64,000 nucleotides of DNA from Fibrobacteria bacterium (GCA_025360005.1 JANYDA010000048.1:78048-142047), one strand, 5' to 3'; counted from the stretch's first letter, positions 33,016-49,971 are shown. The notes: generated by a model from the sequence alone, not told the origin. Numbers and translations are program-made.

Positions 33016-33759
33016 TCATCCTTCCAACCTGAAATTGTAAGTGACCACGAAGCGGCTGGGAACCTTGGCGCCGTCCTTGATCAAGGGTTGGAACAGGCTG
33101 GCCCGGGCCGCGCGCAAGGCGCCCGCGTCGAAATCCTTCCCGGCGGCGCGCTTTACGGAAGCATCGATCACGCGCCCTTCCGCGTCGATGGTTACCCAAA
33201 CCAGCACCACGGCCTGCACTCCCTGCTCCTGGGCCCACTCCGGATAATCGGCCATCGCCTGCTTGAGGAAGCCGGGCGCACGGTCCAATTCCACGGGGGC
33301 GGGAGGCAAAAGGGCCGGGGCTTTGCGCACGATGCTGTCCGCCGGGGTAGCCAGCGTGTTACCCGTGGCCACGGCCATGTCGCCTTGGTCCGAGGTCTCA
33401 TCCTCCTGCAACCCGAAGACCGGCGGGGGCGGTTCCGCGTCAGCCGCCTTGGGAGCGGTGCGTTCTACGGGCGGCGGGGACACCTTGGGCGGTTCCTTGA
33501 CTTCCACGGGCGGCGGCGGGATCTCTTCCACCCATTCCACCGTCTCTTCCCCAGGCGGAGTATGCGCCGGGAGTTTGCCCGCAAAATAGAAGGCCAATCC
33601 CGCCGCGAACAGCGCGGCTCCCGCCAAACCCAGGTCCATGCCGCCCGGTCCCTTGACCGGAGGCAGGTGCAGGAAGATCTTTCCTGCCGTCCCATCCTTT
33701 CCGAAATAGCCTTCCTGGGGCGGGCGCCGCTTGCGTTGCCGGGATGTTGCCGGAATCAT
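33016..33759 (-). CDS. tonB: Energy transducer TonB
   Basis: TM helix, Pro-rich linker, DYPEWAQEQGVQAVV...IDAEGRV TonB_C domain. Confidence 0.88.
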   Translation of the reverse strand: MIPATSRQRKRRPPQEGYFGKDGTAGKIFLHLPPVKGPGGMDLGLAGAALFAAGLAFYFAGKLPAHTPPGEETVEWVEEIPPPPVEVKEPPKVSPPPVERTAPKAADAEPPPPVFGLQEDETSDQGDMAVATGNTLATPADSIVRKAPALLPPAPVELDRAPGFLKQAMADYPEWAQEQGVQAVVLVWVTIDAEGRVIDASVKRAAGKDFDAGALRAARASLFQPLIKDGAKVPSRFVVTYNFRLEG

Positions 33760-34166
33760 GTTCCCGCCCTCGTCACCTTGAGCGCGTATTTGCTGACGCC
33801 GGTGCCGCGCACCAGGTCGATAACGCTTACCACCTCCCGGTAAGGCAAATCCTGATCGGCGGCGATGAGCACCTGATGCTCTACGTCCCGGCCGACCGCT
33901 ACGCGCAACAGGGCGCAGACCTGGGCCGAGTCCTTAAGCTCCCCGTCCAGGAAAAGGCGGTGATCCTTGTCCAGCACCAGGCCGGAAGCCTTGGGCGCCT
34001 CCGAGCCCGCATGGGCCGCCTTGGGCAGGTTGACGGGGATCTGCCGCTGATCCACCACGGAGCTGGTGATCATGAAGATGATGAGCAGCACCAGGAAGAT
34101 ATCCACCAATGGCGTGATGTTGATCGCAGATATGATTTCGTCGTCGGAGGCGGTCATGGAGGCCAT
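33756..34166 (-). CDS. exbD: Biopolymer transporter ExbD
   Basis: INITPLVDIFLVLLIIFMIT, IAADQDLPY; TAATG overlap with exbB. Confidence 0.92.
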   Translation of the reverse strand: MASMTASDDEIISAINITPLVDIFLVLLIIFMITSSVVDQRQIPVNLPKAAHAGSEAPKASGLVLDKDHRLFLDGELKDSAQVCALLRVAVGRDVEHQVLIAADQDLPYREVVSVIDLVRGTGVSKYALKVTRAGT

Positions 34167-34822
34167 TATTCCGCCCTTCCGTTGGCATAGACGAGGTTGG
34201 CCTGCATGCTGCGGGCCACAATCAGGCCGCGGACTTCCCGCGCCCCCTCCAGGACGGTGCGCGAACGCTGCTTCAGGATGTTGAAGAACACCACCGCCGG
34301 GATGGCCACCACCAGGCCCACCGCCGTGGCTATCAAGGCCTGCGAGATGGCGACCATGACTTCCGTGCTGCCTTTGCCTCCGGACGCCGCGAAGCGCTCG
34401 AAGGCGACCAGGATGCCGATGACGGTGCCGGTCAGCCCCAGGAAGGGCGCGTTGGATCCCACCGTGCCCAGGAAGGAAAGCCCCTTCTCCAGTTCGCGCT
34501 TCTCGGCGGATTCCTGCACGTCGAAGACCTTTTCCAAAGCGTCCGAGGCGAGCCCTTGGTTGGCGAGTCCGGTGCGGACCACGCGGCCGGCCAGGGTAGC
34601 GTCGTCTTCCGGAGTGAGGATCATGGATGGGATGCGGGGGCTGGCCATCTCCTGGGCGAGGATGCGGATCCATTTCTGGGGCTTGCCTTGCGCTTTGGCG
34701 TAGCTGCGCCATCGCCAGCAGAAGATGGCCAGGGAGGCCGCGCCGAGCAGGGCGAGCAGGACCAAGAGGCTTTTCTCCAGGATGAGCAGGGCCGGGGCCA
34801 GGTGTTGGATGATGTCGTTCAT
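34166..34822 (-). CDS. exbB: MotA/TolQ/ExbB proton-channel protein
   Basis: LGTVGSNAPFLGLTGTVIGI, ISQALIATAVGLVVAIPAV; AAGGAG RBS. Confidence 0.92.
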   Translation of the reverse strand: MNDIIQHLAPALLILEKSLLVLLALLGAASLAIFCWRWRSYAKAQGKPQKWIRILAQEMASPRIPSMILTPEDDATLAGRVVRTGLANQGLASDALEKVFDVQESAEKRELEKGLSFLGTVGSNAPFLGLTGTVIGILVAFERFAASGGKGSTEVMVAISQALIATAVGLVVAIPAVVFFNILKQRSRTVLEGAREVRGLIVARSMQANLVYANGRAE

Positions 34823-34949: not shown

Positions 34950-36254
34950 TCACCGGCCTTTGGTGCGCATCCAGGCGTTCCGCAACGCGGAGACCGGAAT
35001 GGTGTCGCGCACGGCTTGGATCTGGATCGCGAAACTGTCGGCTATGGCGGCGGAGAAATATCCGTCCCCGTTCGCGACATTGCTGTAGCGCAGCACGTTC
35101 TGGGCCCGGCTGCTGCCCCCGCCCAGGCCGGAACCCGTGCTGGTGCCGGACTGGATGAGGCCTTTGTAGTACTCGTAGTACAAAGGATCCACGCTGTAGG
35201 CGTGCAGGACATTGCGGCCGGTATAGCCCCAAACGCTGTTGGAAAGGCGCAGCGTGTCCGGATAGCCTTTGAGATCGGCGGCATAGGATCCGTTGACCTG
35301 GAGCGCGCGCGTCTGGCCGCGCTGATAGTAGTTGGCGCTGTCCAACTTTTGGTTGAACGCATCGTCAAGGATCTTTTGCAAGGGATCGTAAATACGCGCC
35401 CGGGTGGAATCGAAATGCTGGGACAGGATCACGCCCCCGAAATCCGCCTTGTCGATCACCTGGCCGAACAACCAGGGCAGGGAATAGCGGTGCTGGCTCG
35501 CGCCGGAATAGTCGATGGCGGTCGACGCGTCGAAGATATAGAACACGGTATCCTCGCGGCGCACCGGTCGGAACACGGTCTGTCCTTGCAGGTATTGCGA
35601 GAAGTCCGCCTCCGTGATCCCGCGGTCGGCCAGGGAACGGATGGCTTCCAGGCTGTCGTACAAGCTTTTACGATACGCCGTGTCCTGGCCGGCGCGGGCG
35701 TAAGATGCCGGCGGCAGTCCCCCGGAGAGGGTAGGATGCAGGGCCTCCATGGGCATCCAGGCGAGGGAGTCCAAGGAATACCGGGCCGGAACCTTGGTGG
35801 TGGCAGTGAGGATTTCCGACTGGTACGCCGAACCCGAGGGGAAATCCGACGCTGCGTTCCAACGGACCTGTGCCTTGAAGGCATATTCCGTGCCGCGTTT
35901 GATCCGGTAGGCGGTATCTTCGGACACCCAGGCCGAGGCTCTTCCCGGCACCGGCCGGAAGCGCAGAACGGTACCCGTGGGGGACTCGGAGACCTCGATG
36001 CGGCTTTGCGCCGTGTCCACGAATGCCAGGGAGGAGTCGGTCTTGCCGGCCAGGGGCAAGGGGCGCTCCAACCACAAGGTGTCCAGGGGCCGGTCCGCCA
36101 CCAGCAGCAGGGAGACCCACAACTTGGCGGGTTGCGGACCGTCCACGGCCTGCATGTTCCACGGGCCGTTGCAGGCGGCGGCGCCCAGGCCGGCCAAGGC
36201 CGCCAGGGCCGCCAGCGCGGAAAATTTCGGGTAAGTCTTGGGCGTATTATTCAT
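34950..36254 (-). CDS. Lipoprotein partner of the TonB-dependent receptor (DUF4249-like)
   Basis: Lipobox AAAC, C-terminal YSNVANGDGYF; GGAGG RBS. Confidence 0.7.
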   Translation of the reverse strand: MNNTPKTYPKFSALAALAALAGLGAAACNGPWNMQAVDGPQPAKLWVSLLLVADRPLDTLWLERPLPLAGKTDSSLAFVDTAQSRIEVSESPTGTVLRFRPVPGRASAWVSEDTAYRIKRGTEYAFKAQVRWNAASDFPSGSAYQSEILTATTKVPARYSLDSLAWMPMEALHPTLSGGLPPASYARAGQDTAYRKSLYDSLEAIRSLADRGITEADFSQYLQGQTVFRPVRREDTVFYIFDASTAIDYSGASQHRYSLPWLFGQVIDKADFGGVILSQHFDSTRARIYDPLQKILDDAFNQKLDSANYYQRGQTRALQVNGSYAADLKGYPDTLRLSNSVWGYTGRNVLHAYSVDPLYYEYYKGLIQSGTSTGSGLGGGSSRAQNVLRYSNVANGDGYFSAAIADSFAIQIQAVRDTIPVSALRNAWMRTKGR

Positions 36255-36279
36255 GGTAACCTCCGTGGTACATCCGTTT

Positions 36280-38802
36280 TCAGAATTGGTATTCATAGCC
36301 GACCAATATGGGGAGCAGGGGTATCTGGTAGGTTTCCTGCTTCTGGGGGGGATTCTTGCTGGTGTCGAAGTTGATCAGGAATACGTTCTGCCGGTCCGTA
36401 AGGTTGAGGATGGTCCAGTACAGCCGCCACTTGCCTTCCCGTCCCCAATCGAATACGGTAGCATCCAGGCGGAAATAGTCTTTGCGGACGGTTCCGTTAT
36501 GGCGGCCCTGGCGCAGGTAGGTGTTGTCCTTGAGATAGGTGGCGGGGCCCGCGCCGTCGCCGCCGTCCGCGCCTTGGTCCGGTTCATGCACCGAGTAATA
36601 GTCCTCGAACTGGGTATAGGGCAGGCCGGTATGGTAATTGGCCTGCAAGGTAGTGCGCAGAAAAAGACCTCGTTTGCCCGAATTCCAGAAAGAATTTTCC
36701 GGCTTCCCGCGCCAGTTGAGATTGAGCTTGGCCTTCACCGTGTTGCGCTGATCCCAATCGGCGGCATAGGCTTCAAAGCTGTGGGTGCCGAGAGAGTTGG
36801 TGTAGTCCTTTTGCCGCAGCACGGCCTGGGAAACGCCCCAACTGGCTTCGCCGCTCAGCGCGCCTTCTTCCCGCGCAACCGTCAGTTCCGTCCCCGCGGC
36901 ATAACCGTCCTGGGTGGTGAAATCATCGGAGATCTGGCTGCCGCTCGCCTGGATCTCGGCCTGGGTACGGTAGGGAAAGTATAACGGCAGATCCCGGATA
37001 TCCTTGTAATAGCCCTCCAGGGAAACCTTCAGATGCAAGCTGGTAAGGTCGGACCGTTCCGCGCCCAGGGAAAGCAGGGTGGAGTGCGAAGGCTTGATGG
37101 ATCCTTTCGCCGGATACCAGAATTCATTGAAGGTTTCCTGATCCGTCCAGCGGATGCTGGTCAGGTATTGGTGGTAGATGCCGGCATGCGCGTCCAGCCG
37201 CCAGTCCCGCGTGGGCCTCCAGGTATAGGTGGCGCGAGGATCCCAGGACATATCGTTGAGTTCCGGATACAGGTAGCCGCGCAATCCTACCGTCAGGCTG
37301 TGCTGGGGGGACAATACCCACCGATCCTGCAGGTAGCCCGCATAGAGATCGGTGGAGGTCTTGTCCTGGGTGTCGACGTTGGAGCTTTCCTGGCCGATGG
37401 CGGCGCGGAAATGGTTGTACTCGCCGCCCATGGTAAGCAGATGACCGGCCCCGGCGTTCAGGGACAATTCCTGGCGCGCGTTCCAATCCTCCATGGAGTT
37501 GCTCAGGCTCTGGATGTCCCCGAATTTCCATTTCTGCGAGAAGCGGGAATAGGCCATGGTACCTGAATATTCCCAGCGCTCCCCCAGGCGCAGCTTGAGG
37601 TTGACGGGAATGGCCGTGTTACCCCAGGTTATGTTGATGGGATCCAAGGTCAAATCGTCCTGCCCCTGATAGGCGGAGACGCGCAGGGTATCGCCGCCTT
37701 TGCCGTATGCCACGCTGCCCTGGGCGTCATAGAAGTAATAGGGCAGACTCAGACTGGTCACGCCTAGGGCCCGCCCGGCCGAGAGGGCCTCATCGATCCA
37801 AGTGCGCCGGCCGGCGCCTACCCAGGACCAGTTGCCTTTGCGGCCGTCGGTCTCCAGGGATCCGGAAAGCGTGGTAACGCGCGCGGTACCTTGGGCCCAG
37901 GTTTCCCGCGCGGCTCCGGTATCGGTGGCGCCGCCGTCCTTGCTGGTCACCGACAGCACCGAGCTCAGGCGATCGCCATAGCGGGAATCGAATCCGCCCT
38001 TGTAGAAGTCCATGCCGCCCACGGCGTCGGCCAGGAAGGTGCTGAAGATGCCGCCGAAATGCATGGGCGAATACACGATGGCGTTGTCGAAGAGGATCAG
38101 GTTCTGATCGCTTGCCGATCCGCGCACGTAAAGCTTGGTGGAAAAGTCCGAAGAGGCGACCACGCCCGGCAGCGCCTGCACGGCGCGGATGACGTCCGGT
38201 TCCGCGAGCCCGGGAAGCCGTTTGATCTCCTTGGCGCTGACATGGCTTTGGCCCGCGGCGCGCGCGGGGCGGCGGCGCGCCTTCACGTTCACGGTGCGGC
38301 CGGAATTCTCGCGCCCGCCGTCCACCACGGTGGCGGAGGCCGCCATCGCCGCAGCGGCCGTGGAAGCGCCGGCTCCCGGGGATGCCGGAACCGTATCGGT
38401 CCCGAAGGCCCCGGAAAAATACTCGGGACCCGCGGATGCGGCCGTGTCCGCGGTGAAGGCGAGAGGGGCCAGATCAAGGGTGTCGTAGGCGCCGGCGCTC
38501 ACCGAGGTGCAGGCCCGCCGCGCGCCGTCCACGAGGCAAAGCTCCAACCGCGAGCTCCGGGCGGCGCTGTCGAGGGGGAGGGAGGCGGTCCAAGCGCCCG
38601 CGGAATCCACCGGGAACTCGGATCCTCCCAGGGAAATGCGCGAGCCCGCCGGAGCCGAACCGCGGAAGACCACGGTGCCGGGTGCGCTCTTTATCAGCGC
38701 GGCGCCCGCGCTATCCGGGGCCGCTGCGGTCCCTCCGTCCGGGGAGGGAGTCGCCAGGGCCGACGAGGCCGTCCACATCAACGCAACAATGAGCCGATTC
38801 AT
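36280..38802 (-). CDS. TonB-dependent outer-membrane receptor
   Basis: Plug DVIRAVQALPGV...YVRGSASDQNLILFD, YKGGFDSRYG, C-terminal beta-barrel ending GYEYQF. Confidence 0.92.
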   Translation of the reverse strand: MNRLIVALMWTASSALATPSPDGGTAAAPDSAGAALIKSAPGTVVFRGSAPAGSRISLGGSEFPVDSAGAWTASLPLDSAARSSRLELCLVDGARRACTSVSAGAYDTLDLAPLAFTADTAASAGPEYFSGAFGTDTVPASPGAGASTAAAAMAASATVVDGGRENSGRTVNVKARRRPARAAGQSHVSAKEIKRLPGLAEPDVIRAVQALPGVVASSDFSTKLYVRGSASDQNLILFDNAIVYSPMHFGGIFSTFLADAVGGMDFYKGGFDSRYGDRLSSVLSVTSKDGGATDTGAARETWAQGTARVTTLSGSLETDGRKGNWSWVGAGRRTWIDEALSAGRALGVTSLSLPYYFYDAQGSVAYGKGGDTLRVSAYQGQDDLTLDPINITWGNTAIPVNLKLRLGERWEYSGTMAYSRFSQKWKFGDIQSLSNSMEDWNARQELSLNAGAGHLLTMGGEYNHFRAAIGQESSNVDTQDKTSTDLYAGYLQDRWVLSPQHSLTVGLRGYLYPELNDMSWDPRATYTWRPTRDWRLDAHAGIYHQYLTSIRWTDQETFNEFWYPAKGSIKPSHSTLLSLGAERSDLTSLHLKVSLEGYYKDIRDLPLYFPYRTQAEIQASGSQISDDFTTQDGYAAGTELTVAREEGALSGEASWGVSQAVLRQKDYTNSLGTHSFEAYAADWDQRNTVKAKLNLNWRGKPENSFWNSGKRGLFLRTTLQANYHTGLPYTQFEDYYSVHEPDQGADGGDGAGPATYLKDNTYLRQGRHNGTVRKDYFRLDATVFDWGREGKWRLYWTILNLTDRQNVFLINFDTSKNPPQKQETYQIPLLPILVGYEYQF

Positions 38803-38884
38803 CCGATTTCCTTTCCGCGGCGGCAATCGCGCCGCGCATGCAAGGAAATATACGGGTTGCCGAAATGCGCGGGTTTTCCCGGTC

Positions 38885-38936
38885 GGCGTACTGTCGGATT
38901 GTGCCGTCGAACGGTCGAAAGCGGTTCCCGGAACGT
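38885..38936 (-). promoter_or_regulatory. Candidate LytTR-binding direct repeats
   Basis: Minus-strand ACGTTCCGG, CCGTTCGAC and CAGTACGCC at 22- and 21-bp periods; TATATT -10-like hexamer at 38852-38847. Confidence 0.45.
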
Positions 38937-39023
38937 CCCCTTGGGTAACTTGCAAGGTACTGCGGGGCCGGGAAGCCGCAGGCGATACGGAGGGCCGGGG
39001 CGCCGCCATCCGCCAAATGCAGG

Positions 39024-40901
39024 TTATGGGGGGTGAACGGCATCCTCGCCGCGGGCGGCGCGGGGACCTGGGAGCGATCCGGGATCCTGGATGTTCACGT
39101 CCGCCTGCCAGGAGTTGCCGGCCGCCGGAACCGCCCCCACGCTCAGGTTCCATCGTCCCGGAAAGGCTTCTTCCAAACGGGCCCGCACATATTTGAGGCC
39201 GGTCTCGTCGGACGCGCGCTGCCAGCGCGGCTTTAGGGGAGCCTGATGGGAAAGCCGCAGGCGCAGGCCCTTGCCGGGATGGGCCGCGAGCAGGAAGCGG
39301 ATGGCCGGAGGGCCTTCCTCGGCTTCTTCCAATCCCATTTCCAACAGGGTGTGCAGAACCATGGGAGGAATGCGCTCCTCGCCGTCCACGCCTTGGGTCT
39401 CCAGCGAAAGGGCGCGGTGCCCCCGCAGTCCCATCACTTCAAGGTGGGAGCGGCACAGTTTGATCTCTTCGGCCAAGGGGATGATCCGCTCTGAGGACAG
39501 TTTGAGCACCATACGCAATTCCGAGGCCAGGGAATTGACCAGCCGGGCGGCCACTTTGGGTTCGCGCTCCAGCCAATCCGTGATCGAGCGCAGGGAGTTG
39601 AGCAGGAAGTGGGGCTGGATGTTTTTCTTGAGCAGCTCGATTTCCAGGCGCGCGCTGCGGAGATTGCTTTCTTGGAAAGCCATCCCCTGGCGGGTCAGGC
39701 GCCGCGCCAGTCCGCCGTTGAGGAATAGGATCAGGGCGGTAAGTCCCACCGCCCAGGCCCATTGCCATCGGGAAGCCTGCGTGAGGGCGACTCCGGCGAG
39801 CAGGCATAGCAGGCCCAGGCTGGCGGATCCGCTGCCCGGCTTCTTCTTCCATACGGCCCAAGCCGAAATCCCCAGCGAGAGCAAAATGGTGGCGAACCCC
39901 AGGATATCGTTGGCCCCGGACACGCCGCGGAACATCCCGGCCGGGAGCAGGTCCACGATGGCCAGTTCCAAGGGCAGCATTATCGAGGCCACGATGGTTC
40001 CCAGCAGCCAGTACCAGCGGCGCGCTGCTCTGGTGAATTCGCTCAGGAAGAACATGGGCAGGGATATCATCATGATTCCCCAGGCCAAGGTGGTGGCCGC
40101 ATCCGCCCATATGAAGGTGGGCATTTTCACGTTCAGGTAGATGGCCGCGAACATGGGTATGCTCTGGAGCGTGCAGCCCATGCAGAATAGGCTGAAGAGG
40201 CCGTAGGTGGGCTGGATCCGGTTCATGAAGTTGGCGAAATGGAAAATGCTGGTGATGAAGAAGATGCCCATCAGGAATACCAACAGGGCGATCTGCCCGT
40301 GCATGGCGTTCTGCAAGGGTTTCAGGCCGCCCAGCTTGACGTAGCCCATGCCTCCCGTGAAGGTGCGGAAGTTGGATATCCTCAGGGCCAGCATGTGTTC
40401 TCCCGGCCCGCACAGTTTCCAGGGGATGGTGATGGACTGGAACATCCGCCCCGGTTTTTCCCCGGCCGCGTCGGCGGCTACCCGTCCGTTGCTGCCCACC
40501 TGCAACCCGTCCCAGAAAACTTCCTGAGCGTCCGGGTTATGGAAGGCGTTCAGATAAAGGGGCTCCAGGGAATCGATAGGATCCTGCAAACGAATACGGG
40601 CGCGATACCAAATGATTCCCTTGGGAGGCAGCCCATCCGCTATCCAGGTCCGCAGGGCTCCGGAGTTCAGCTTCCAATCTCCGTCGGGCCAAGCGGGAGC
40701 GGCCCAGGCGGTATCGTCTCCGGTATGGTATTTCCATTTCTCCAGGAAGACAACGTCCTGGGAGCTCGCGTTCCAGGTATAAGACGCGTCGCCTTCCGCC
40801 GGGATCGCGGCGTCCCTCCCAGGTAACGCCAAAGCTACTGCGGAAAGGAGCGAACCGCACGCCAAGGCGGCCAGGATGAAGGCAGTACCCCGCGAACCCA
40901 T
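39024..40901 (-). CDS. LytS-type membrane sensor with sugar-binding-like periplasmic domain; ATP-binding boxes degenerate (probable pseudokinase)
   Basis: H-box NIQPHFLLNSL intact; N-box LEMGLEE, G1 SHQA and G2 ETGL deviate from ENGLTHG / NDG / GTGL. Confidence 0.8.
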   Translation of the reverse strand: MGSRGTAFILAALACGSLLSAVALALPGRDAAIPAEGDASYTWNASSQDVVFLEKWKYHTGDDTAWAAPAWPDGDWKLNSGALRTWIADGLPPKGIIWYRARIRLQDPIDSLEPLYLNAFHNPDAQEVFWDGLQVGSNGRVAADAAGEKPGRMFQSITIPWKLCGPGEHMLALRISNFRTFTGGMGYVKLGGLKPLQNAMHGQIALLVFLMGIFFITSIFHFANFMNRIQPTYGLFSLFCMGCTLQSIPMFAAIYLNVKMPTFIWADAATTLAWGIMMISLPMFFLSEFTRAARRWYWLLGTIVASIMLPLELAIVDLLPAGMFRGVSGANDILGFATILLSLGISAWAVWKKKPGSGSASLGLLCLLAGVALTQASRWQWAWAVGLTALILFLNGGLARRLTRQGMAFQESNLRSARLEIELLKKNIQPHFLLNSLRSITDWLEREPKVAARLVNSLASELRMVLKLSSERIIPLAEEIKLCRSHLEVMGLRGHRALSLETQGVDGEERIPPMVLHTLLEMGLEEAEEGPPAIRFLLAAHPGKGLRLRLSHQAPLKPRWQRASDETGLKYVRARLEEAFPGRWNLSVGAVPAAGNSWQADVNIQDPGSLPGPRAARGEDAVHPP

Positions 40902-41287
40902 CAAGCTATCAGGTTCCGCGCCTTGACGTAACGCTCCAGGTGTCGCCGCAATTGTTCTTCATCCAAGGGCTTGGACAGGTATGCGAACACGCCCAAGGCG
41001 AAGGCCTCGTCGCAATAGCGGGAGTCGGCGCTGACGATGATGACCTTGTCCGCGGGCAGCTTGGATTGCCGCAGCCATTCCAGGGTATTGAAGCCGCCCA
41101 GGTTCAGGTCCAGGAAAATCAGGTCCGGGTTTTTCGCCACCTCGGCCATGGCGGCGTCCGGATCCCCGCTCCAATCGATCTCGGCGGGAATCCTGCCCCA
41201 CTCGCCCAGATCTTCCAGTAAGCGATCCAGAAGCTTACGCAGGCGGCGCGCGGCCGGGGGTTCGTCCTCAATCAGGAGTATCTTCAT
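40901..41287 (-). CDS. Single-domain response regulator (LytTR-type receiver, no output domain)
   Basis: LLIEDE, LIFLD, VS and SKP conserved; 128 aa. Confidence 0.85.
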   Translation of the reverse strand: MKILLIEDEPPAARRLRKLLDRLLEDLGEWGRIPAEIDWSGDPDAAMAEVAKNPDLIFLDLNLGGFNTLEWLRQSKLPADKVIIVSADSRYCDEAFALGVFAYLSKPLDEEQLRRHLERYVKARNLIA

Positions 41288-41291
41288 GGGA

Positions 41292-41984
41292 TTAAGCGCG
41301 CTCCTTCAATTCCCTGTACTTCACCCGGCTCACCGGAACCAGGCGGCCTTTGCCCAGCTCCATGGCATATTTGCCCGCGCCCTGCAACACTATCCCCTTC
41401 ATGGCCCGCATGTCCACGATGTAGGACTTGTGGATGCGCTCGAAGTGCGGGGGCAAAAGCTCCCCCAGCGTTTCCAGGGTCTTGCCGTGCAATTCCATGC
41501 GCCCGTCCTCAAGGTGGATTTCCACGTAGTCCCCCGCGCCCTGCAGGTACAGCACCTTGTCCACGGGCAGCAGTTCCACCTTCCCGTGCTTGCGCACGGA
41601 AAGGTATTTGGCCGGCGGCCGGCCTTGCGATTTGGTGCCGACGCGCGCCAACGCCTTCTCCAGCCGTTCCAGGTCGAAGGGCTTGGGCACGAAATCCAGC
41701 ACGCCGTATTGGAAGGCATCCACGGCCCTATCCGCGTTGGCGGAAACCACAATGGTCTGGAAGGATCCTGCGGCGGCCAGCCTTAGGAGATCGTATCCGT
41801 CCTCGCCGTGGAGGTTGAGATCCAAGAGCAGCAGGTCGATGGGTTTTTCAAAAAGGTATTCTTCCGCGTCCGCGAGCGATTCCTTGACGGCGATCGAGAC
41901 CGCTTTTTCGCCCAGGATTTCCCCGACCATGCGCTCCAGGCGCCGGGCCGCCACGCTTTCGTCTTCCGCGATGAGGATGCGCAT
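41292..41984 (-). CDS. LytTR-family response regulator
   Basis: Receiver (LLLLD, PKP) plus LytTR domain (YLQGAGDYVEIH, FERIHKSYIV). Confidence 0.93.
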   Translation of the reverse strand: MRILIAEDESVAARRLERMVGEILGEKAVSIAVKESLADAEEYLFEKPIDLLLLDLNLHGEDGYDLLRLAAAGSFQTIVVSANADRAVDAFQYGVLDFVPKPFDLERLEKALARVGTKSQGRPPAKYLSVRKHGKVELLPVDKVLYLQGAGDYVEIHLEDGRMELHGKTLETLGELLPPHFERIHKSYIVDMRAMKGIVLQGAGKYAMELGKGRLVPVSRVKYRELKERA

Positions 41985-42005
41985 GTTACCCCCGTCCCTT
42001 CGGTT

Positions 42006-43850
42006 TCAATTTTTCACATCCACGATCACCTGCCAGCCGCCCGCCACGGCCCCGGAATTCAGGCTCCAGCGCCCGGGAAAGGCTTCCTCCAGCCGAGAGC
42101 GCACGTAGCGCAGCCCGGTTCCTTCGCCTTGCTTGGCCGGTTTTTCCTTGGGGGCGCCGTCGTTGAAAAGCGAGAAGCGGATGCCGCCGGGGATGTCCTC
42201 GCGCTTGAGCAGGAAAACGCCTTCGGTCTTGCCCACGTAGCCGTGCGTCAGGCCGTTCTCGACCAAGGTGTGCAGCACCAGCGGCGGGATCGGCTCTTCG
42301 CCGCGGATCCCCTGGGCCTCCATCCGATAGCTCTTGTCCTGGCGCAGTCCCATCAGCTGCAGATGGGTGCGGCACAGCCGGATTTCCTCGTCCATGGGAA
42401 TGGTCTGTTCCGCCGAAACCTTGAGGAGGATTTCCAGCTCTTCCGCCAGGGCGTTCACCAGACGCACGGCCGTCTTGGGTTCCTCTTCCAGCCAGGCGAT
42501 GATCGAGTTCAGGGAATTGAGCAGGAAGTGGGGTTGGATATTCTTCTTCAGGAGTTCGATCTCCAGACGCGCGGATCGGATTTCGGTCTCGCCGTGGATC
42601 CGCAACCGTTCCGACATCTGCAGGGACTGGGCGCGCGCCAGGAAGATGATATGGGCGGCCACGCCGGCGGCCCAAGCCCAATTGCTGTGGAACACGAAGG
42701 TGATGAAGACGCCCATCAATAGGCACAGGATCCCCCGCAACGCGGGGCGGCTGCCGGTTTGCTTGCGCCAAACCGCCCATGCGATGACCCAGATGGAAAT
42801 GCCGATGGAGACATAGGTGAAAAACTGGTTCGCCGTCTGCACGACGTTTATGCGGTGGAAGGGCAGCCATCCGGTGAATACCAGTGTCATGGGCAAAGCG
42901 AAGAAGACTCCTGCGATGAGCTGGGCCTTGCCCACCCATCGGTATGGGAATGTCTCGGCGAAGATGAAGAAATCCGGGATCATGCTTACCATGAAATACC
43001 AGGCTACCCCCAGCGCCACCCGGCAGGCCATTTGCGTCCCTTCCGGCAGGGTCACCACCGCGCCCAGGTACTGCAGGATGATAAAAGCGGCGCAGGCGAA
43101 AACGAATATGGAGAAATAAAAACTGCCGCGGCCATAGCCGGAGGCGCGATAGTTGAGAAAGCGGTGCAAGGCGCCGAAGACGAAGATGCCGGCCAGGAAA
43201 AACATCACCAAGGCCTCGCGCATGTACCCGAGTTCCAAATCCGCCAGGTCCGCCACCGCTATCAAAGCCGGGACGGGAAAGACGATGCCGTGGTGGGCGG
43301 TCCTGCGGACCGCAAGACTGTGGCGTCCGGGAACGGTAAGGTAGGGCGGTATTTCCAAAAAGGCGCCTGTTCCCAGCCGTTCCTCGGCCAGGGTCGCTCC
43401 CAGCTTTCCGCTGCGGCCGATCAGCACGCCGTCCCAATAGAATTCCTGAGGGGTGGCGGGCATATGGCTGATGGCCAGGGTCTTTGCCGGCCCCGGGTTT
43501 TCCGGAAGCGTGAACGATTTGCGGAACCAGGCGTACTCATGGCGGGAAACGAGTTCGCGGCGACTGGCTTGCAGGAGGTCGGCGGAATCCCAATGGGTAT
43601 CCACGTATGCGGGCTGGGACCATTGCGCGGAGTCGCCGGAATGGTATTTCCAGAGGCCCATTAGCGGCATGGGCCTTTCCCAAGCTTCCACGGGCGGCCG
43701 CATATCGGCCTCCGCGGCCGGCACGCCCGCCAAGACAATCAGCCACCCCGCCATGAGGAAAACCGGGCGTCCCGCCGCGAATGGGGCGGCGGATGGATGG
43801 CGGGAACCGGATCCGGTTGCAAGGTCATTTGGGGGCGTCCTGGCGGCCAT
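42006..43850 (-). CDS. LytS-type membrane histidine kinase with sugar-binding-like periplasmic domain
   Basis: WKYHSGD...W motif, multiple TM helices, NIQPHFLLNSL, ENGLTHG, NDG, GTGL. Confidence 0.88.
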   Translation of the reverse strand: MAARTPPNDLATGSGSRHPSAAPFAAGRPVFLMAGWLIVLAGVPAAEADMRPPVEAWERPMPLMGLWKYHSGDSAQWSQPAYVDTHWDSADLLQASRRELVSRHEYAWFRKSFTLPENPGPAKTLAISHMPATPQEFYWDGVLIGRSGKLGATLAEERLGTGAFLEIPPYLTVPGRHSLAVRRTAHHGIVFPVPALIAVADLADLELGYMREALVMFFLAGIFVFGALHRFLNYRASGYGRGSFYFSIFVFACAAFIILQYLGAVVTLPEGTQMACRVALGVAWYFMVSMIPDFFIFAETFPYRWVGKAQLIAGVFFALPMTLVFTGWLPFHRINVVQTANQFFTYVSIGISIWVIAWAVWRKQTGSRPALRGILCLLMGVFITFVFHSNWAWAAGVAAHIIFLARAQSLQMSERLRIHGETEIRSARLEIELLKKNIQPHFLLNSLNSIIAWLEEEPKTAVRLVNALAEELEILLKVSAEQTIPMDEEIRLCRTHLQLMGLRQDKSYRMEAQGIRGEEPIPPLVLHTLVENGLTHGYVGKTEGVFLLKREDIPGGIRFSLFNDGAPKEKPAKQGEGTGLRYVRSRLEEAFPGRWSLNSGAVAGGWQVIVDVKN

Positions 43851-44036
43851 ATTGTTGCAATATAGTAGCGGGGCGCGTCGGTATGCCGCAAATTGTCGCC
43901 CAAGTGCATTTCCACGGGGCGAACGGAAGCGGGGGTGGGGACGGCCCGGCTGAATGCCGGTAGGGAGGCCCCGAAAAAAAACCTGGGGTAACCTCATTGC
44001 TACCCACTAAGAAGGAGTACGGGGTTTCCTTCCCGA

Positions 44037-45857: not shown

Positions 45858-46335
45858 ATGGCCGTCCGTTTTCAATGGGAATAAATTTCTCAACAGCGCC
45901 TGCGCAAAAATAGACCTATTCCCCACGATTGCCGCCCAATACAGGGCCCTTCATGTCCACTTCCCTGTTTCCCGGTGGTTTCGTGTTTCCGCCCCTAGCC
46001 AGGGGGAGCGGAATTATCGTGCCCTGCCAATTAAAGTACCGTGGAAGGCTTCGACATTGCCCTAAATCGCATTTTCCGGGTTTTTCTTACGCCAACCAAA
46101 CGAAATGTCGGAAGGGTAGGGCTATCGAGTTCGCAAATGAGAAATACCGGAGCGGTTCCGGGCCCTCTGTGGGCCTCATGTAACTCACAAGTTACGGGAC
46201 ATTCATGCTCCATCCCCTGATCACGGTTTGGCCGGTTTCCGCATGGTGGGTTCGTAGCATAGAACGGCATGATGGGCGCGTACTTCGCGTCCTTAAAGGA
46301 CGGACATCAGACGGGTGTTAGGGGGCTGCAAGGAG

Positions 46336-47862: not shown

Positions 47863-49971
47863 ATGGGGGGTGGAAAAGAAAAGGGTCGCGGCTGGCAGGG
47901 GGCAGGGAGAGATCTCCTAGCCGCTTTAGCCAAAACATTAGGCAGGGGCGCGCCGGTTGAACCAGGCTCCAAGTTCCCTCTACCGCCCCATCCCGGATCT
48001 TTCCGGCTGCTTTTCGCCAAGGCTCCGGAAGCCATGGCGCTCCTCAACGGAAACATGCTCCTGGAAACCAATCCCGCCTGGGATGAGCTTTTCCATTATC
48101 CCGGGACGCATTCCGCCGGCGCTGCCTTGGGGCGTTTCATCCCTGATGCATTCATCCTCCATGCGGGGACATTGCCGCTAACCGGATCGGAAGGGGTCAA
48201 AGGGGACGGCACGCGTTTTCCCCTGAAGGTTTACGCTTATCCCTTCCCCTGGCAGGGCCGGGATTTGCGCGTGGTCACCGCCTATGCGGTCCAGGAAGGG
48301 CCCGCCGCAACCGGAGGCTCGGCGGCAGGGCAAGACTGTTCCGAGGACGGTTCGGACGCGGGAATCGATCGGTTGCGCCGGGTGTTGGCCAATGCGCCCA
48401 TCGTCCTGTTCGCCTTGGACGGTAAAGGGAGGGTCACTTTCTGCGAGGGACGGGGACTGGAGCCTTTGGGCATCAACTCACGCCAGGCAGTGGGCAAATC
48501 CGCATTTGAATTGTGCCGGCATACGCCGCAAGACAGCCTGAATCTGCGCCGCGCGCTTTCCGGCGAAGAGTTCACCGCCACCGCCGGGTTTGAAGGCATG
48601 TGGTTCGAGATCCATTTCAGCCCCTTGTTCAAGGGCTACGACGATGTGGCTGGAGTGGTGGGGGTGGGACTCAACATCACCGATCGCCACAAGGCCGCCG
48701 AAGCCTTGCGCCGCAGCGACGGAAAGCTGCGCCATGCTCGCAAGATGGACGCCATCGGCCGGGTGGCGGCCGGGGTCACCCGTGATTTCATCGACCTGCT
48801 GGCTCTGTTGAATGCCAGCGGCGAATCCCCGCTCCCGGAAATCGGCGGGGTGGAATCGCAAACCTGGAACCTGGCGGAATTCCGCAAGCTGGCGGAACGG
48901 GCTTCCCAACTCAAGGGGCGCCTGTCGGCCATCGGACGCAACCAGGCGCTTTCGCTGGGGCCTGTCAAGCTCAACCGCTTGACGGATGCGATTGATAAAG
49001 AACTGCGCCGCAGGCTTCCGGCGGAGATTGAGTTGGTGACGGCGCTGGAACCGGAACTGGGCGAGGTATGGGCCGACGCCGGGAAGTTGGAACAGGTGAT
49101 ATTTGATCTGATCGAGAATGCCCGCGATGCCATACCCGATGGCGGACAGATCACGCTGGAAACCGGGAACGTGGAATTGGACGGGAGCTATGCCCGCGGC
49201 GAACTCTTCGTGGTCCCGGGCCCTTATGTCATGTTATCCATAAGCGATACCGGTATCGGCATGGACGAAGAGGTCAAGTCGCATTTGTTTGAACCGTATT
49301 TTTCCACCAAGGCGGAAGGCAAGGGCCTGGGCTTGCCGGCAGTGTATGGGACCGTGAAGCAGAACGGCGGGACCCTTTCCGTGGAAAGCGAGATAGGCAA
49401 AGGGACCAGGGTCAGGATATACCTTCCCCGCCTGGACGGGAGCCGGGCGCCCGCGCGCTATGCGCCGCCGGCGCAGGTTTCCAAGTCCGCCCGATCCGGT
49501 TTTTCCCCGCATGGCCTGGAAACCATCCTGCTGGTGGAGGATGAAGAAGCGGTCCGGACTTTGATCCGGGAAATCCTGTGCATGCACGGCTACGAAGTGT
49601 TGGAAGCGCGCCAGGGCGGCGAAGCCATCCTCATCAGCCAGAGCCACAAAGGGTCCATCCAGCTTTTATTGACGGACATGGTGATGGCCAACATGAGCGG
49701 CCGGGAACTGGCCGGGCACTTGATGCCTTTGCGGCCGGAGATGCGTGTCCTGTTCATTTCCGGATACAACCCGCAGGCCGTATTCAGCGAGACGTGGGGA
49801 ATGGGAGGATCCTTGCTCGGGGATTCCCCGGGGCGCGACGGCGCAGGCCCGAATACGGTCGCCTTTCTGGCCAAGCCCTTCACCCCCAAGACTTTGGCCG
49901 CCAGGGTCCGCGATTTGCTGGACGGGAAACCCTCCGGGCGCGGCGCCTTGATCGGGCATTTGCAGGAATAG
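47863..49971 (+). CDS. PAS-containing hybrid (CckA-like) kinase lacking the phospho-acceptor His
   Basis: H-box reads GVTRDFIDLL instead of GVAHDFNNLL; HATPase (NARDA, DTGIG, GKGLGL) and receiver (LLLTD, AKPF) intact. Confidence 0.85.
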   Translation: MGGGKEKGRGWQGAGRDLLAALAKTLGRGAPVEPGSKFPLPPHPGSFRLLFAKAPEAMALLNGNMLLETNPAWDELFHYPGTHSAGAALGRFIPDAFILHAGTLPLTGSEGVKGDGTRFPLKVYAYPFPWQGRDLRVVTAYAVQEGPAATGGSAAGQDCSEDGSDAGIDRLRRVLANAPIVLFALDGKGRVTFCEGRGLEPLGINSRQAVGKSAFELCRHTPQDSLNLRRALSGEEFTATAGFEGMWFEIHFSPLFKGYDDVAGVVGVGLNITDRHKAAEALRRSDGKLRHARKMDAIGRVAAGVTRDFIDLLALLNASGESPLPEIGGVESQTWNLAEFRKLAERASQLKGRLSAIGRNQALSLGPVKLNRLTDAIDKELRRRLPAEIELVTALEPELGEVWADAGKLEQVIFDLIENARDAIPDGGQITLETGNVELDGSYARGELFVVPGPYVMLSISDTGIGMDEEVKSHLFEPYFSTKAEGKGLGLPAVYGTVKQNGGTLSVESEIGKGTRVRIYLPRLDGSRAPARYAPPAQVSKSARSGFSPHGLETILLVEDEEAVRTLIREILCMHGYEVLEARQGGEAILISQSHKGSIQLLLTDMVMANMSGRELAGHLMPLRPEMRVLFISGYNPQAVFSETWGMGGSLLGDSPGRDGAGPNTVAFLAKPFTPKTLAARVRDLLDGKPSGRGALIGHLQE

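Follow-up and report, generated by a model that had tools for sequence, protein, structure and literature searches.

In a 64,000-nt window of DNA from an uncultured Fibrobacteria bacterium (GCA_025360005.1 JANYDA010000048.1:78048-142047), we identified a sensor pseudokinase, HK2, that is encoded in the same operon as its active-type paralog, HK1, and that keeps the phospho-acceptor histidine but not the canonical residues of the ATP site. We believe, from its sequence and those of its relatives, that HK2 is very probably a functional, ATP-blind paralog that acts together with HK1 and the response regulator RR1. The best explanation overall, to which we would give a probability of roughly one half, is that HK2 is a selection-maintained pseudokinase of the PF06580 (LytS/YesM) type, the fixed partner of HK1, and that it drains phosphoryl groups; the draining mechanism as such is put forward tentatively.

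Gene layout and the ATP sites of the two sensors

ORF and Pfam analysis of the window gave the minus-strand gene order HK1-RR1-RR2-HK2, upstream of a TonB-dependent receptor/ExbBD/TonB operon. HK1, an active-type sensor histidine kinase, occupies 42006-43754; its ORF spans 42006-43997, and the likely start is the ATG at 43754, where a 582-aa database entry also begins (the sequence-only reading of this DNA had used an alternative ATG at 43850). RR1 (41292-41984) is a response regulator with matches to Pfam Response_reg and LytTR, the latter a DNA-binding domain, and RR2 (40901-41287) is a stand-alone receiver of 128 aa that matches Response_reg only. HK2, assigned from its ORF (39024-40904), Pfam, motif alignment and a structure model, has its ATG at 40901 and is annotated as 39024-40901; its residues are numbered here from the TTG at 40904, one codon ahead of the ATG. 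The stop codon of RR2 overlaps this ATG (TGATG), which suggests translational coupling.

The two sensors had been described as clear paralogs, and they are indeed 37% identical over 592 aa (E 4e-110) and have ELLKKNIQPHFLLNSL and RLEEAFPGRW in common. HK1 has a sugar-binding-like outer domain, seven transmembrane helices, a PF06580 dimerization and phosphotransfer (DHp) domain and an ATPase domain with intact boxes: the N box ENGLTHGY (42231-42260), the G1 box FNDG (42156-42167) and the G2 box GEGTGL (42111-42128). The AlphaFold model of HK2 (pLDDT 88) has a complete sensor kinase fold, with an outer beta-sandwich (aa 41-192, 40329-40784), seven transmembrane helices (annotated at aa 194-400; in the model, within aa 194-428) and an ATPase-like alpha/beta domain (aa 499-605, pLDDT about 90). 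The outer domain resembles GH2 sugar-binding domains (profile E 5e-7, with a Foldseek fold match as well); the membrane domain scored 28.0 bits against PF07695 (7TMR-DISM_7TM), slightly below the cut-off of 29, and Pfam returned no PF07696 match in HK2. The DHp domain matches PF06580 His_kinase (E 7.4e-15, 55.4 bits; Pfam cut-off 25.2), including the xPHF(L/I)xN H box. Foldseek searches with the model gave GanS as the top match and included the DivL kinase domain (4q20).

Pfam HATPase_c matches neither HK2 nor HK1, indicating that the ATPase domain is atypical across the whole family, and we therefore examined the ATP site of HK2 by motif alignment to HK1 and GanS, checking the N-box assignment against the solved GanS kinase domain (6swj/6swk). 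The motif changes listed in the sequence-only reading were all recovered. His432 (codon CAC, 39609-39611), in QPHFLLN (aa 430-436), occupies the phospho-acceptor position and is kept. The degenerate N box EMGLEEAEEG (39312-39341) has Met523 (39336-39338) at the position of the Mg-ATP-binding Asn, so that ENGLTHG of HK1 becomes EMGLEEA, with the acidic EEAEEG in place of THGYVG. The former G1-lid-G2 stretch (39195-39251) reads SHQA (39240-39251) instead of FNDG, then LKPRWQR, then DETGL (39195-39209) instead of GEGTGL. In GHKL ATPases it is the N-box Asn that coordinates Mg2+-ATP, and HK2 is predicted to be no longer able to bind Mg-ATP. In EnvZ, N-box mutants lose kinase activity and keep phosphatase activity; we know of no established phosphatase motif in PF06580 kinases.

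The DHp domains of HK1 and HK2 are about 68% identical by a hand count from the pairwise alignment, and their first helices are near-identical, with just two clade-fixed differences. Because DHp helix 1 is nearly invariant throughout the subfamily, in several phyla, the likeness of the two helices is not specific evidence. RR1 has the receiver residues E7/D8, D55, S81 and K101. RR2, as had been noted, keeps its own (E7/D8, D60, S86, K106) and has no output domain such as LytTR, its chain ending at residue 128. Two further features of RR2 are conserved, an LGEWG insertion behind helix 1 and the motif SAD(S/T)RYC, and its helix 1 shares AARRL with that of RR1. A third pair, encoded at another place in the genome, includes a LytTR regulator to which RR2 is 39% identical; its identity to RR1 is 37%, so it is no closer to RR1 than to this other regulator. 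The FATGUY motif (F-A-T-G-x-Y, in strand 4 and the next loop), which defines shuttle receivers such as SdrG, MrrA and Sma0114 (PMC9981736), is not present in RR2, which has IIVSADSRYC there instead.

Conservation of the kinase/pseudokinase pair

We found the kinase/pseudokinase module in 15 loci from Fibrobacterota genomes and metagenomes. HK1 and RR1, the LytTR regulator, adjoin HK2 in all 15, each of which has visible context. RR2 is present in 12 of the 15, and the remaining three, from one subclade, keep HK2, His included, without it. One locus has the order HK1-RR1-RR2-HK2-x-HK1b-HK2b, in which the second pair has no regulators of its own and two kinase/pseudokinase pairs share a single RR1 and RR2. 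Because RR2 is missing in one subclade and HK1b-HK2b lacks regulators, the conserved unit is kinase plus pseudokinase and not HK2 plus RR2. The earlier description of a duplicated two-component module is correct as to the paralogy of the kinases; its module wording is loose in view of the gene order and of these loci.

The N-box Asn is missing in 26 of 26 HK2-clade proteins, where Met, Ile or Leu (or Gln) takes its place, and is present in 17 of 17 HK1-clade proteins. Among the nearest 50%-cluster representatives, 140 were scored and 131 have the Asn; the nine without it comprise five HK2-clade proteins, including the query HK2, and four others. Loss of this Asn is the universal and diagnostic change of the HK2 clade. 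The G2 change is not universal (DGTGL is found in several members), and the G1 box is a weak criterion here, since its Asp is also missing in many solo kinases of this subfamily from other phyla. At the N box itself, a few solo kinases of the subfamily read EGG or ESG; with the frequent lack of the G1 Asp, this means that the family may tolerate unusual ATP sites. Where the ATP lid used to be, HK2-clade proteins share a new, clade-specific conserved motif, L[KR]P[RK]WQR. The His432 position is kept in 25 of 26 members; the exception, P0027, has Arg, and the His may therefore not be essential everywhere.

HK1 and HK2 form sister clades with mirrored topologies and equal branch lengths. A second family of the order is represented in each of them, and the duplication is older than a family split. 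In pairs of relatives, most with dS near saturation, dN/dS was 0.18-0.41 for HK2 and 0.13-0.41 for HK1, and in the least saturated pair 0.24 and 0.26, respectively. HK2 resembles HK1 in this measure in all four domains: its values were 0.26 for the sensor, 0.28 for the seven-helix membrane domain, 0.14 for the DHp and 0.19 for the ATPase-like domain (against about 0.15 for the ATPase domain of HK1), making the last two the best-conserved parts of the protein. RR2 is under strong purifying selection (dN/dS 0.09-0.19).

HK2 is a selection-maintained paralog that is not decaying: it is present with an intact reading frame in every relative, there are 26 distinct intact HK2-clade proteins in public data, and the ATP-box changes are fixed in the clade. 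The sequence-only reading had already doubted simple decay, and the dN/dS comparison across orthologs for which it had called bears this out; its refuting condition, a second copy missing or frameshifted in relatives, did not hold. We therefore rejected the explanation in which a duplicated system is decaying and HK2 and RR2 are its remnants, to which we attach almost no probability; the motif losses themselves are all that speaks for it, and the age of the clade, its branch lengths and its dN/dS speak against it.

The predicted target operon

The likely target operon, also on the minus strand, begins with the TonB-dependent receptor (Plug domain, 36280-38802), and the gene directly after the receptor in all cases encodes a DUF4249-like protein (34950-36296, a weak match). 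ExbB (34166-34822), ExbD (33756-34166) and TonB (33016-33759, start uncertain) follow, and these three genes (33016-34822) are the locus's own energizing motor.

Alignment of six orthologous intergenic regions revealed a conserved direct repeat ahead of the receptor gene, ACCGTTC-N14-ACAGTAC (38888-38915, minus strand), whose period is 21 bp. The window contains no other copy and 200 shuffles yielded none, though the pattern was derived after the alignment had been viewed. A LytTR site of the AgrA type has a pair of direct repeats, each about 9 bp long and separated by 12-13 bp, ahead of the promoter that is controlled, and we consider the repeat a likely binding site for RR1. Between it and the receptor ATG, about 35 bp downstream of the former and about 40 bp ahead of the latter, lies a conserved GTATATTTCCTT box (38842-38853, minus strand), a likely core promoter element. 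Conserved synteny and the conserved LytTR-type repeat in the promoter support the receptor operon as the predicted target of the HK1/RR1 system, in agreement with the earlier proposal.

Known analogs and the proposed role of HK2

The arrangement of HK1 and HK2 has close analogs among known systems, namely Spo0B, ChpT, PhyT/SdrG and RocA. Spo0B, of the Bacillus sporulation relay, and ChpT, of the Caulobacter CckA/ChpT relay (PMC3433190), are kinase-derived dimeric phosphotransferases with a DHp-like bundle that carries the phospho-His and a Bergerat-like domain with no ATP-binding capacity, and Spo0F is a receiver-only shuttle. As judged from sequence and model, HK2 shares with proteins of the Spo0B, ChpT and PhyT kind a DHp domain with a conserved His and an ATPase-like fold without ATP-binding residues. 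However, Spo0B and ChpT are soluble and sensorless, whereas HK2 has an outer domain and seven transmembrane helices under purifying selection and is kept even in loci without a stand-alone receiver. PhyT (PhyP), of the alphaproteobacterial general stress response, is membrane-bound and acts in Pak-SdrG-PhyT-PhyR (PMC5898713). Like HK2 as proposed here, it is a kinase-like protein with a conserved His that is not an ATP-driven kinase and that has a dual phosphotransferase and negative role, and together with true kinases and a stand-alone receiver it controls how far a single output regulator is phosphorylated. PhyT differs in belonging to the HisKA2/HWE world rather than to PF06580/LytS and in its output, the anti-anti-sigma factor PhyR rather than a LytTR protein, and HK2, unlike PhyT, is a full paralog of an active kinase in the same operon with a large outer sensor domain retained; RR2 differs from SdrG in lacking FATGUY. 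The sequence-only reading did not include a His-Asp-His-Asp relay, and HK2 and RR2 would fit the Spo0B/Spo0F and PhyT/SdrG pattern.

RocA, the CovS partner of group A Streptococcus, is a multi-pass membrane homolog of sensor kinases; its catalytic domain is degenerate, and it modulates both a true kinase and the regulator of that kinase (PMC7028121). The His of RocA is dispensable and its gene is unlinked to covRS, whereas in HK2 the His and DHp are best conserved and the gene lies in its paralog's operon; the His in 25 of 26 members argues against dispensability of the RocA type, and P0027 argues for it. DivL of Caulobacter, like HK2 as proposed here, is a kinase-like protein repurposed as a non-kinase signaling part, with the reverse pattern: DivL has lost its His (Tyr) and kept its ATPase domain. 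HK2 is of one kinase family with GanS, the best sequence and fold match to the kinase core, and with BtsS of BtsS/BtsR, a LytS/LytTR system with a 7-TM sensor (PMC10653868); the likeness extends to the PF06580 DHp, the 7-TM receptor architecture, the LytTR partner and the control of a transporter for the nutrient that is sensed. BtsS and GanS are, however, single catalytically competent kinases, and neither system is known to have a paired pseudokinase or stand-alone receiver.

We infer that HK2 handles phosphoryl groups made by HK1, whether as a drain, in a relay or in a heterodimer; the sequence-only reading had likewise proposed a phosphatase, a phosphate sink or a heterodimer partner. A possible, if somewhat unlikely, course is a four-step relay from HK1 to RR2 to His432 of HK2 to RR1, with HK2 as a membrane-bound, sensor-gated histidine phosphotransferase; phosphoryl groups would pass only if both sensors allowed it, so that the system would be an AND gate served by one ATPase. 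The encoding in one operon of a receiver-only protein and a kinase-like protein whose His is kept while its ATPase-like domain is dead matches the known relays Spo0F/Spo0B, CckA/ChpT and Pak-SdrG-PhyT-PhyR and argues for such a relay, as do the overlap of the RR2 and HK2 genes and the constraint on RR2 and its presence in most loci. On the other hand, three loci keep HK2 and its His without RR2, the HK1b-HK2b pair comes without receivers, the FATGUY motif found in alphaproteobacterial shuttle receivers is absent from RR2, and helix 1 of RR1 and RR2 and DHp helix 1 of the two sensors are too alike for the insulation of a strict relay. We found no LytS-family relay with a sensor-bearing middle phosphotransferase in the literature searched; if the relay were true, two extracytoplasmic sugar-type sensors would check one phosphoryl group in series with a single ATPase.

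That HK1 and HK2 always co-occur, once as an adjacent pair without regulators, could instead reflect a heterodimer or allosteric co-sensor, in which the two proteins contact each other by their membrane domains, their DHp domains or both, and HK2 adjusts the kinase/phosphatase balance of HK1. The single ATPase domain of HK1 may then phosphorylate the His of either subunit, and the His chemistry of HK2 may be dispensable, as in RocA-CovS, where a membrane pseudokinase binds CovS and its His is not needed. The high DHp identity relative to the whole protein, the paucity of clade-fixed differences in helix 1 and the Arg of P0027 are consistent with this. We nevertheless regard it as unlikely: a membrane-only contact needs neither the strongly conserved DHp and ATPase-like domains nor the His, and helix 1 is too uniform across the subfamily for the likeness to be specific. 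It is very improbable that HK2 is still an autokinase that binds nucleotide non-canonically. In its favor, the subfamily has short ATPase domains that HATPase_c fails to match even in HK1, and other phyla contain solo kinases with EGG/ESG at the N box or with no G1 Asp; yet in HK2 the Asn has become hydrophobic Met, Ile or Leu (or Gln), the following HG has become EA, the G1 NDG is gone and the lid has a new conserved motif, and these changes are clade-fixed while the adjacent HK1 retains all canonical residues under strong constraint.

In the draining explanation that we prefer, HK2, which keeps its sugar-binding-like outer domain, seven-helix membrane domain, DHp helices and acceptor His, would have lost ATP binding and would act on the regulators of HK1 as its constant partner. 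HK1 would make phosphoryl groups and pass them to RR1, and phosphorylated RR1 would bind the repeat at 38888-38915 and turn on the TonB-dependent receptor/ExbBD/TonB operon. HK2 would dock RR1 and RR2 through a DHp almost the same as that of HK1; the docking surfaces are taken to be shared because RR1 and RR2 have AARRL in helix 1 and the two DHp first helices are near-identical. A signal at the outer domain of HK2 would set the removal or taking back of phosphoryl groups, by phosphatase action or by reverse transfer onto His432, with RR2 as an extra phosphoryl acceptor or shuttle. The shared partners and the direction of phosphoryl flow are likewise predictions from these comparisons. Kinase and phosphatase duties would thus be divided between two sensors, and the importer would be expressed only if HK1 is on and HK2 is not draining, a two-ligand logic gate on the receptor operon of the kind that had been suggested from the sequence alone. 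The switch that controls an outer-membrane nutrient importer probably gains a second signal input through HK2.

Genes of the locus and the ATP site of HK2

In the genome of this uncultured bacterium, the minus strand carries a head-to-tail array of four genes between 39024 and approximately 43754. HK1, an active-type sensor kinase, is encoded by an ORF at 42006-43997 whose likely start is the ATG at 43754, which matches a 582-aa database entry. RR1 (41292-41984) encodes a receiver with a LytTR domain, and RR2 (40901-41287) a receiver only, of 128 aa. The gene for the paralogous sensor HK2 (39024-40901) begins with an ATG that overlaps the RR2 stop as TGATG. A gap of 221 bp separates HK2 from the next five genes, also on the minus strand, which encode a TonB-dependent receptor (36280-38802), a DUF4249-like protein (34950-36296), and ExbB, ExbD and TonB (33016-34822).

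The sequence-only reading had proposed that the two sensors are paralogues, and that HK2 keeps its phospho-acceptor His while its ATP boxes have changed; both points were borne out. HK1 and HK2 both match the Pfam family His_kinase (PF06580), with a weaker 7TMR-DISM_7TM match in each, and they share 37% identity over 592 residues (E 4e-110), including the strings on which the earlier claim was based. Numbered from the TTG at 40904, one codon ahead of the ATG, His432 of HK2 is present (CAC, 39609-39611), and helix 1 of the dimerisation and phosphotransfer (DHp) domain is nearly identical between the two proteins. ENGLTHG of HK1 corresponds to EMGLEEA in HK2, FNDG to SHQA, and GEGTGL to DETGL. 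The N-box assignment is anchored in structure: for the family profile and for HK1 alike, this stretch aligns with LIENAFIHG of GanS, whose kinase domain has been solved (6swj); the sequence alignment of HK1 with GanS ends past the N box, and G1 and G2 are not anchored to structure. Pfam HATPase_c matched neither full-length kinase, nor the C-terminal part of either one taken alone, at a threshold as loose as E 10. Since HK1 is also unmatched, this profile does not discriminate, and we therefore used motif alignment as the test of the ATPase domain. Judged by these motifs, the ATP site of HK2 looks dead.

The AlphaFold model of HK2 (42-sequence alignment, mean pLDDT 88, pTM 0.71) comprises a beta-sandwich (aa 41-192), seven membrane helices, a long helix leading into the DHp hairpin, and a compact alpha/beta domain (aa 499-605). 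When the model was compared with the PDB using Foldseek, the best match was the GanS kinase domain, followed by many GH2 sugar-binding domains that matched the outer part; the kinase cores of HK853 and DivL also matched. A profile search concurs (GanS, 7e-12; GH2 sugar-binding domain, 5e-7). As modelled, HK2 retains the complete domain arrangement of a sensor kinase of the sugar type, with only its nucleotide site altered.

The partner receiver had been described as keeping its key residues while having no LytTR domain, and this was confirmed: alignment of RR2 with CheY places the acidic pair, phospho-Asp, Ser and Lys of receivers, and Pfam detects no second domain. The receiver is of the LytTR-regulator type, but its identity to RR1 (37%) does not exceed that to the regulator of a third pair (39%), which is encoded at another place in the genome. 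RR1 and RR2 have the string AARRL in common in helix 1, and the FATGUY motif of shuttle receivers was sought in RR2 and is absent. The third pair, on contig C21 of the window's own genome (L041 3070-5887), is an ordinary one, consisting of a 7TMR-DISMED2, 7TM and PF06580 kinase with intact boxes (ENGLTHGY, NDG, GLGL) and a LytTR regulator; its nearest relatives are found in Leptospirales and Spirochaetia, not in the HK1/HK2 clade. HK2 is not the only non-canonical kinase in the window: the translation of a hybrid kinase at 47863-49971 (plus strand) reads GVTRDFIDLL at the expected H box, with Arg replacing His.

Conservation, selection and age of the paralogues

Whole-genome searches covered 61 genomes, namely 60 relatives and the window's own. 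We looked for absence or frameshifting of HK2 and instead found the module in three other genomes of the genus (two of which carry two copies), in one genome of another genus, and, split over two contigs, in one genome of another family of the same order; no internal stops were present in these copies. Relatives fetched by name are metagenome-assembled genomes of Fibrobacteres/Fibrobacteria. A search of 5.8 billion proteins yielded 26 HK2-type and 17 HK1-type proteins. All 17 of the latter carry ENG(L/I/V)THGY, NDG and GTGL. The N-box Asn is present in none of the 26 HK2-type proteins, being replaced by Met, Ile, Leu or Gln after Glu, with DMG, DRG or GMG in single members. In most members the HG that follows this position has become EA and G1 reads SHxA, and a new conserved motif, L[KR]P[RK]WQR, occupies the former position of the ATP lid. 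The acceptor His is present in 25 of the 26.

Two other candidate criteria were discarded: the G1 Asp is missing from many of the subfamily's solo kinases (in Verrucomicrobiota, Ignavibacteria and Gammaproteobacteria), and several HK2-clade members have DGTGL at G2. One HK2-clade protein, P0027 (L089 8001-9974), known from a single assembly, has Arg at the acceptor position (QPRF) and a long low-complexity insert in its ATPase-like domain; HK1, RR1 and RR2 still precede its gene.

We also scanned 1.84 billion cluster representatives without a profile, using the C-terminal half of HK2 as the query, and found the N-box Asn in 131 of the 140 nearest sequences scored. Five of the nine exceptions belong to the HK2 clade (query included), two have EGG, one has ESG, and one is an unrelated double loss. 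Odd sites in the wider subfamily are represented by P0204, P0110 and P0112 and by loci L051, L068 and L077. P0204 has a double change, of His to Lys and of the N-box Asn to Tyr, and several Opitutaceae kinases, each apparently the sole kinase beside a LytTR regulator, have EGG for ENG.

Intact frames and coordinated changes had been taken to speak against simple decay of HK2, and the dN/dS comparison across orthologues suggested as a check agrees. Pairwise Nei-Gojobori dN/dS was 0.18-0.41 for HK2 versus 0.13-0.41 for HK1, values that are approximate, as dS is near or above 1 for many pairs, though comparison of the paralogues within a genome pair is still fair. Because the window's own nearest pair is near saturation (dS ~1), we gave most weight to the pair with the lowest saturation (dS 0.56-0.62), with dN/dS of 0.24 for HK2 versus 0.26 for HK1, and on domain medians. 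For the sensor, membrane, DHp and ATPase-like domains these were 0.26, 0.28, 0.14 and 0.19 in HK2 and 0.36, 0.27, 0.09 and 0.15 in HK1. For RR2, dN/dS was 0.09-0.19. The maximum-likelihood tree recovers HK1 and HK2 as sister clades (support 97), with similar branch lengths. Each clade forms one group that includes a member from the other family of the order, and their topologies mirror each other, which places both the duplication and the disappearance of the ATP site before the family split and shows that the two copies have been retained since. With intact frames, changes fixed across the clade and HK1-like dN/dS, we reject decay as an explanation of HK2.

Natural variants of the module and a candidate RR1 site

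HK1 and RR1 lie directly upstream of HK2 in all 15 loci with visible neighbours, whereas RR2 is found in 12 and is missing only in one subclade, which is made up of one metagenome contig and two genomes in which a complete module is present as well. Because this subclade nests beside an RR2-bearing member, the absence of RR2 is a secondary loss. The metagenome contig L090 (7063-16172) has the order HK1-RR1-RR2-HK2-x-HK1b-HK2b-small ORF-receptor, in which HK1b-HK2b is a second kinase/pseudokinase pair without regulators of its own, so that the two pairs have one RR1 and one RR2 in common, ahead of one receptor operon. The sequence-only reading had described a duplicated module with a second HK2-RR2 pair; the paralogous kinases stand, but the conserved unit is kinase, pseudokinase and RR1, to which RR2 is often added. 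A Trp-to-Leu change in the DHp domain of HK2 (ITDWLE to ITDLLE) was considered as a correlate of RR2 loss and rejected, since the HK2-type protein P0025 has DLL together with RR2.

In nearly all loci HK2 is followed by the receptor, the DUF4249-like gene and ExbB/ExbD/TonB. Two further genes are found in relatives and are absent from the window. A gene for an Omp85-like outer-membrane protein (~365 aa), with overlapping start and stop codons, lies between RR2 and HK2 in three loci: the closest relative (L033 5443-6540), L088 (6817-7932) and apparently G010a. In several relatives (L090 16292-16537, L091 7713-7877, and the intergenic regions of L033, L035 and L037) the receptor gene is immediately preceded by a small conserved ORF of 54-81 aa; the ORF product has a hydrophobic N-terminus (ML.ILFVA..LLTQAY.FRD) and an acidic, Ser-rich tail.

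The region between HK2 and the receptor gene is alignable among relatives and contains a conserved direct repeat at 38888-38915, ACCGTTC-N14-ACAGTAC, with a period of 21 bp; a relative's version is GACAGTTC-N13-GACAGTTC. A conserved GTATATTTCCTT box lies approximately 35 bp downstream. The repeat pattern, which was written after the alignment was seen, occurs once in the 64-kb window and in 0 of 200 shuffles; we count as the real evidence not this result but the conserved position of the repeat in six orthologous intergenic regions. LytTR regulators such as AgrA bind direct repeats of about 9 bp with a spacing of 12-13 bp, and 38888-38915 is a plausible candidate for the RR1 site. A separate word, GTAAC-N6-GNTAC, is found genome-wide and occurs 23 times in the window versus 0.04 expected, with copies between HK2 and the receptor (38945-38960), just upstream of HK1 (43988-44003), and at 36256-36271 and 46180-46195. 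The copy at 38945 is conserved in position in the relatives' orthologous promoters, ~30 bp upstream of the LytTR-type repeat, which would be as compatible with a site bound by a protein as with an uptake-type word.

Possible roles of HK2

We envisage HK1 as the sole source of phosphoryl groups and phosphorylated RR1 as the probable activator of the receptor operon. HK2, which shares its genomic fate with HK1 and RR1, would dock the same receivers as HK1, given the near-identical DHp helix 1 of the two kinases and the AARRL common to helix 1 of the two regulators. Our preferred reading, tentative at a probability of roughly 0.4, is that HK2 drains phosphoryl groups from RR1~P and RR2~P under the control of a signal, either as a phosphatase or by reverse transfer. 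The two activities of a single bifunctional ancestor, kinase and phosphatase, would thereby be divided over two sensors. A drain would explain why HK2 is retained where RR2 is absent, how a second HK1b-HK2b pair can share one RR1, and why the DHp domain and its His are the best conserved parts of HK2.

Phosphate might instead pass along a His-Asp-His-Asp relay, HK1-RR2-HK2-RR1, as it does in Spo0F/Spo0B, ChpT and Pak-SdrG-PhyT-PhyR. This would best account for RR2 itself and for the coupling of RR2 to HK2, but it is strained by the loci that have no RR2, and we consider it unlikely. HK1:HK2 heterodimers, or an allosteric partnership like that of RocA, fit the data, as do the relay and the drain, and seem to us less probable again. 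That HK2 is an unusual yet active kinase is very improbable, even though the subfamily has an atypical ATPase domain and unusual N boxes occur in a few of its solo members.

Pseudokinase and phosphotransferase derivatives of histidine kinases are an established but thinly sampled class with few known cases, namely DivL, RocA, ChpT, Spo0B and PhyT. HK2 belongs to this class. In DivL the His is gone and the ATPase retained. RocA, a membrane pseudokinase, can do without its His (PMC7028121), the soluble proteins Spo0B and ChpT combine a retained His with a dead ATPase fold (PMC3433190), and PhyT, which is bound to the membrane, acts together with the stand-alone receiver SdrG (PMC5898713). HK2 differs from all five in belonging to the PF06580/LytS family with LytTR output, in being a full-length paralogue of an active kinase in its own operon, in keeping a large sugar-binding-like sensor under selection, and in its probable control of a TonB-dependent importer. 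Our search of the open-access literature, including Fibrobacter, LytTR, and 7TMR-DISM with TonB receptors, did not turn up any account of this system.

The locus offers a clean natural experiment, in which an active kinase and an apparently ATP-blind paralogue are encoded adjacently, both with full sensor domains under equal selection. The circuit is complete, with one LytTR regulator common to both kinases, a stand-alone receiver that is present in some loci only and, as likely output, a TonB-dependent importer with its own motor, and the RR2-less loci, the doubled kinase/pseudokinase pair and the one His-less member amount to natural genetic dissections of it. It is a tidy, testable case rather than a surprise, relevant chiefly to specialists in two-component signalling. 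Its study could reveal how kinase and phosphatase or transfer duties are divided between two sensors, and how polysaccharide-degrading Fibrobacteria control the decision to express an importer.
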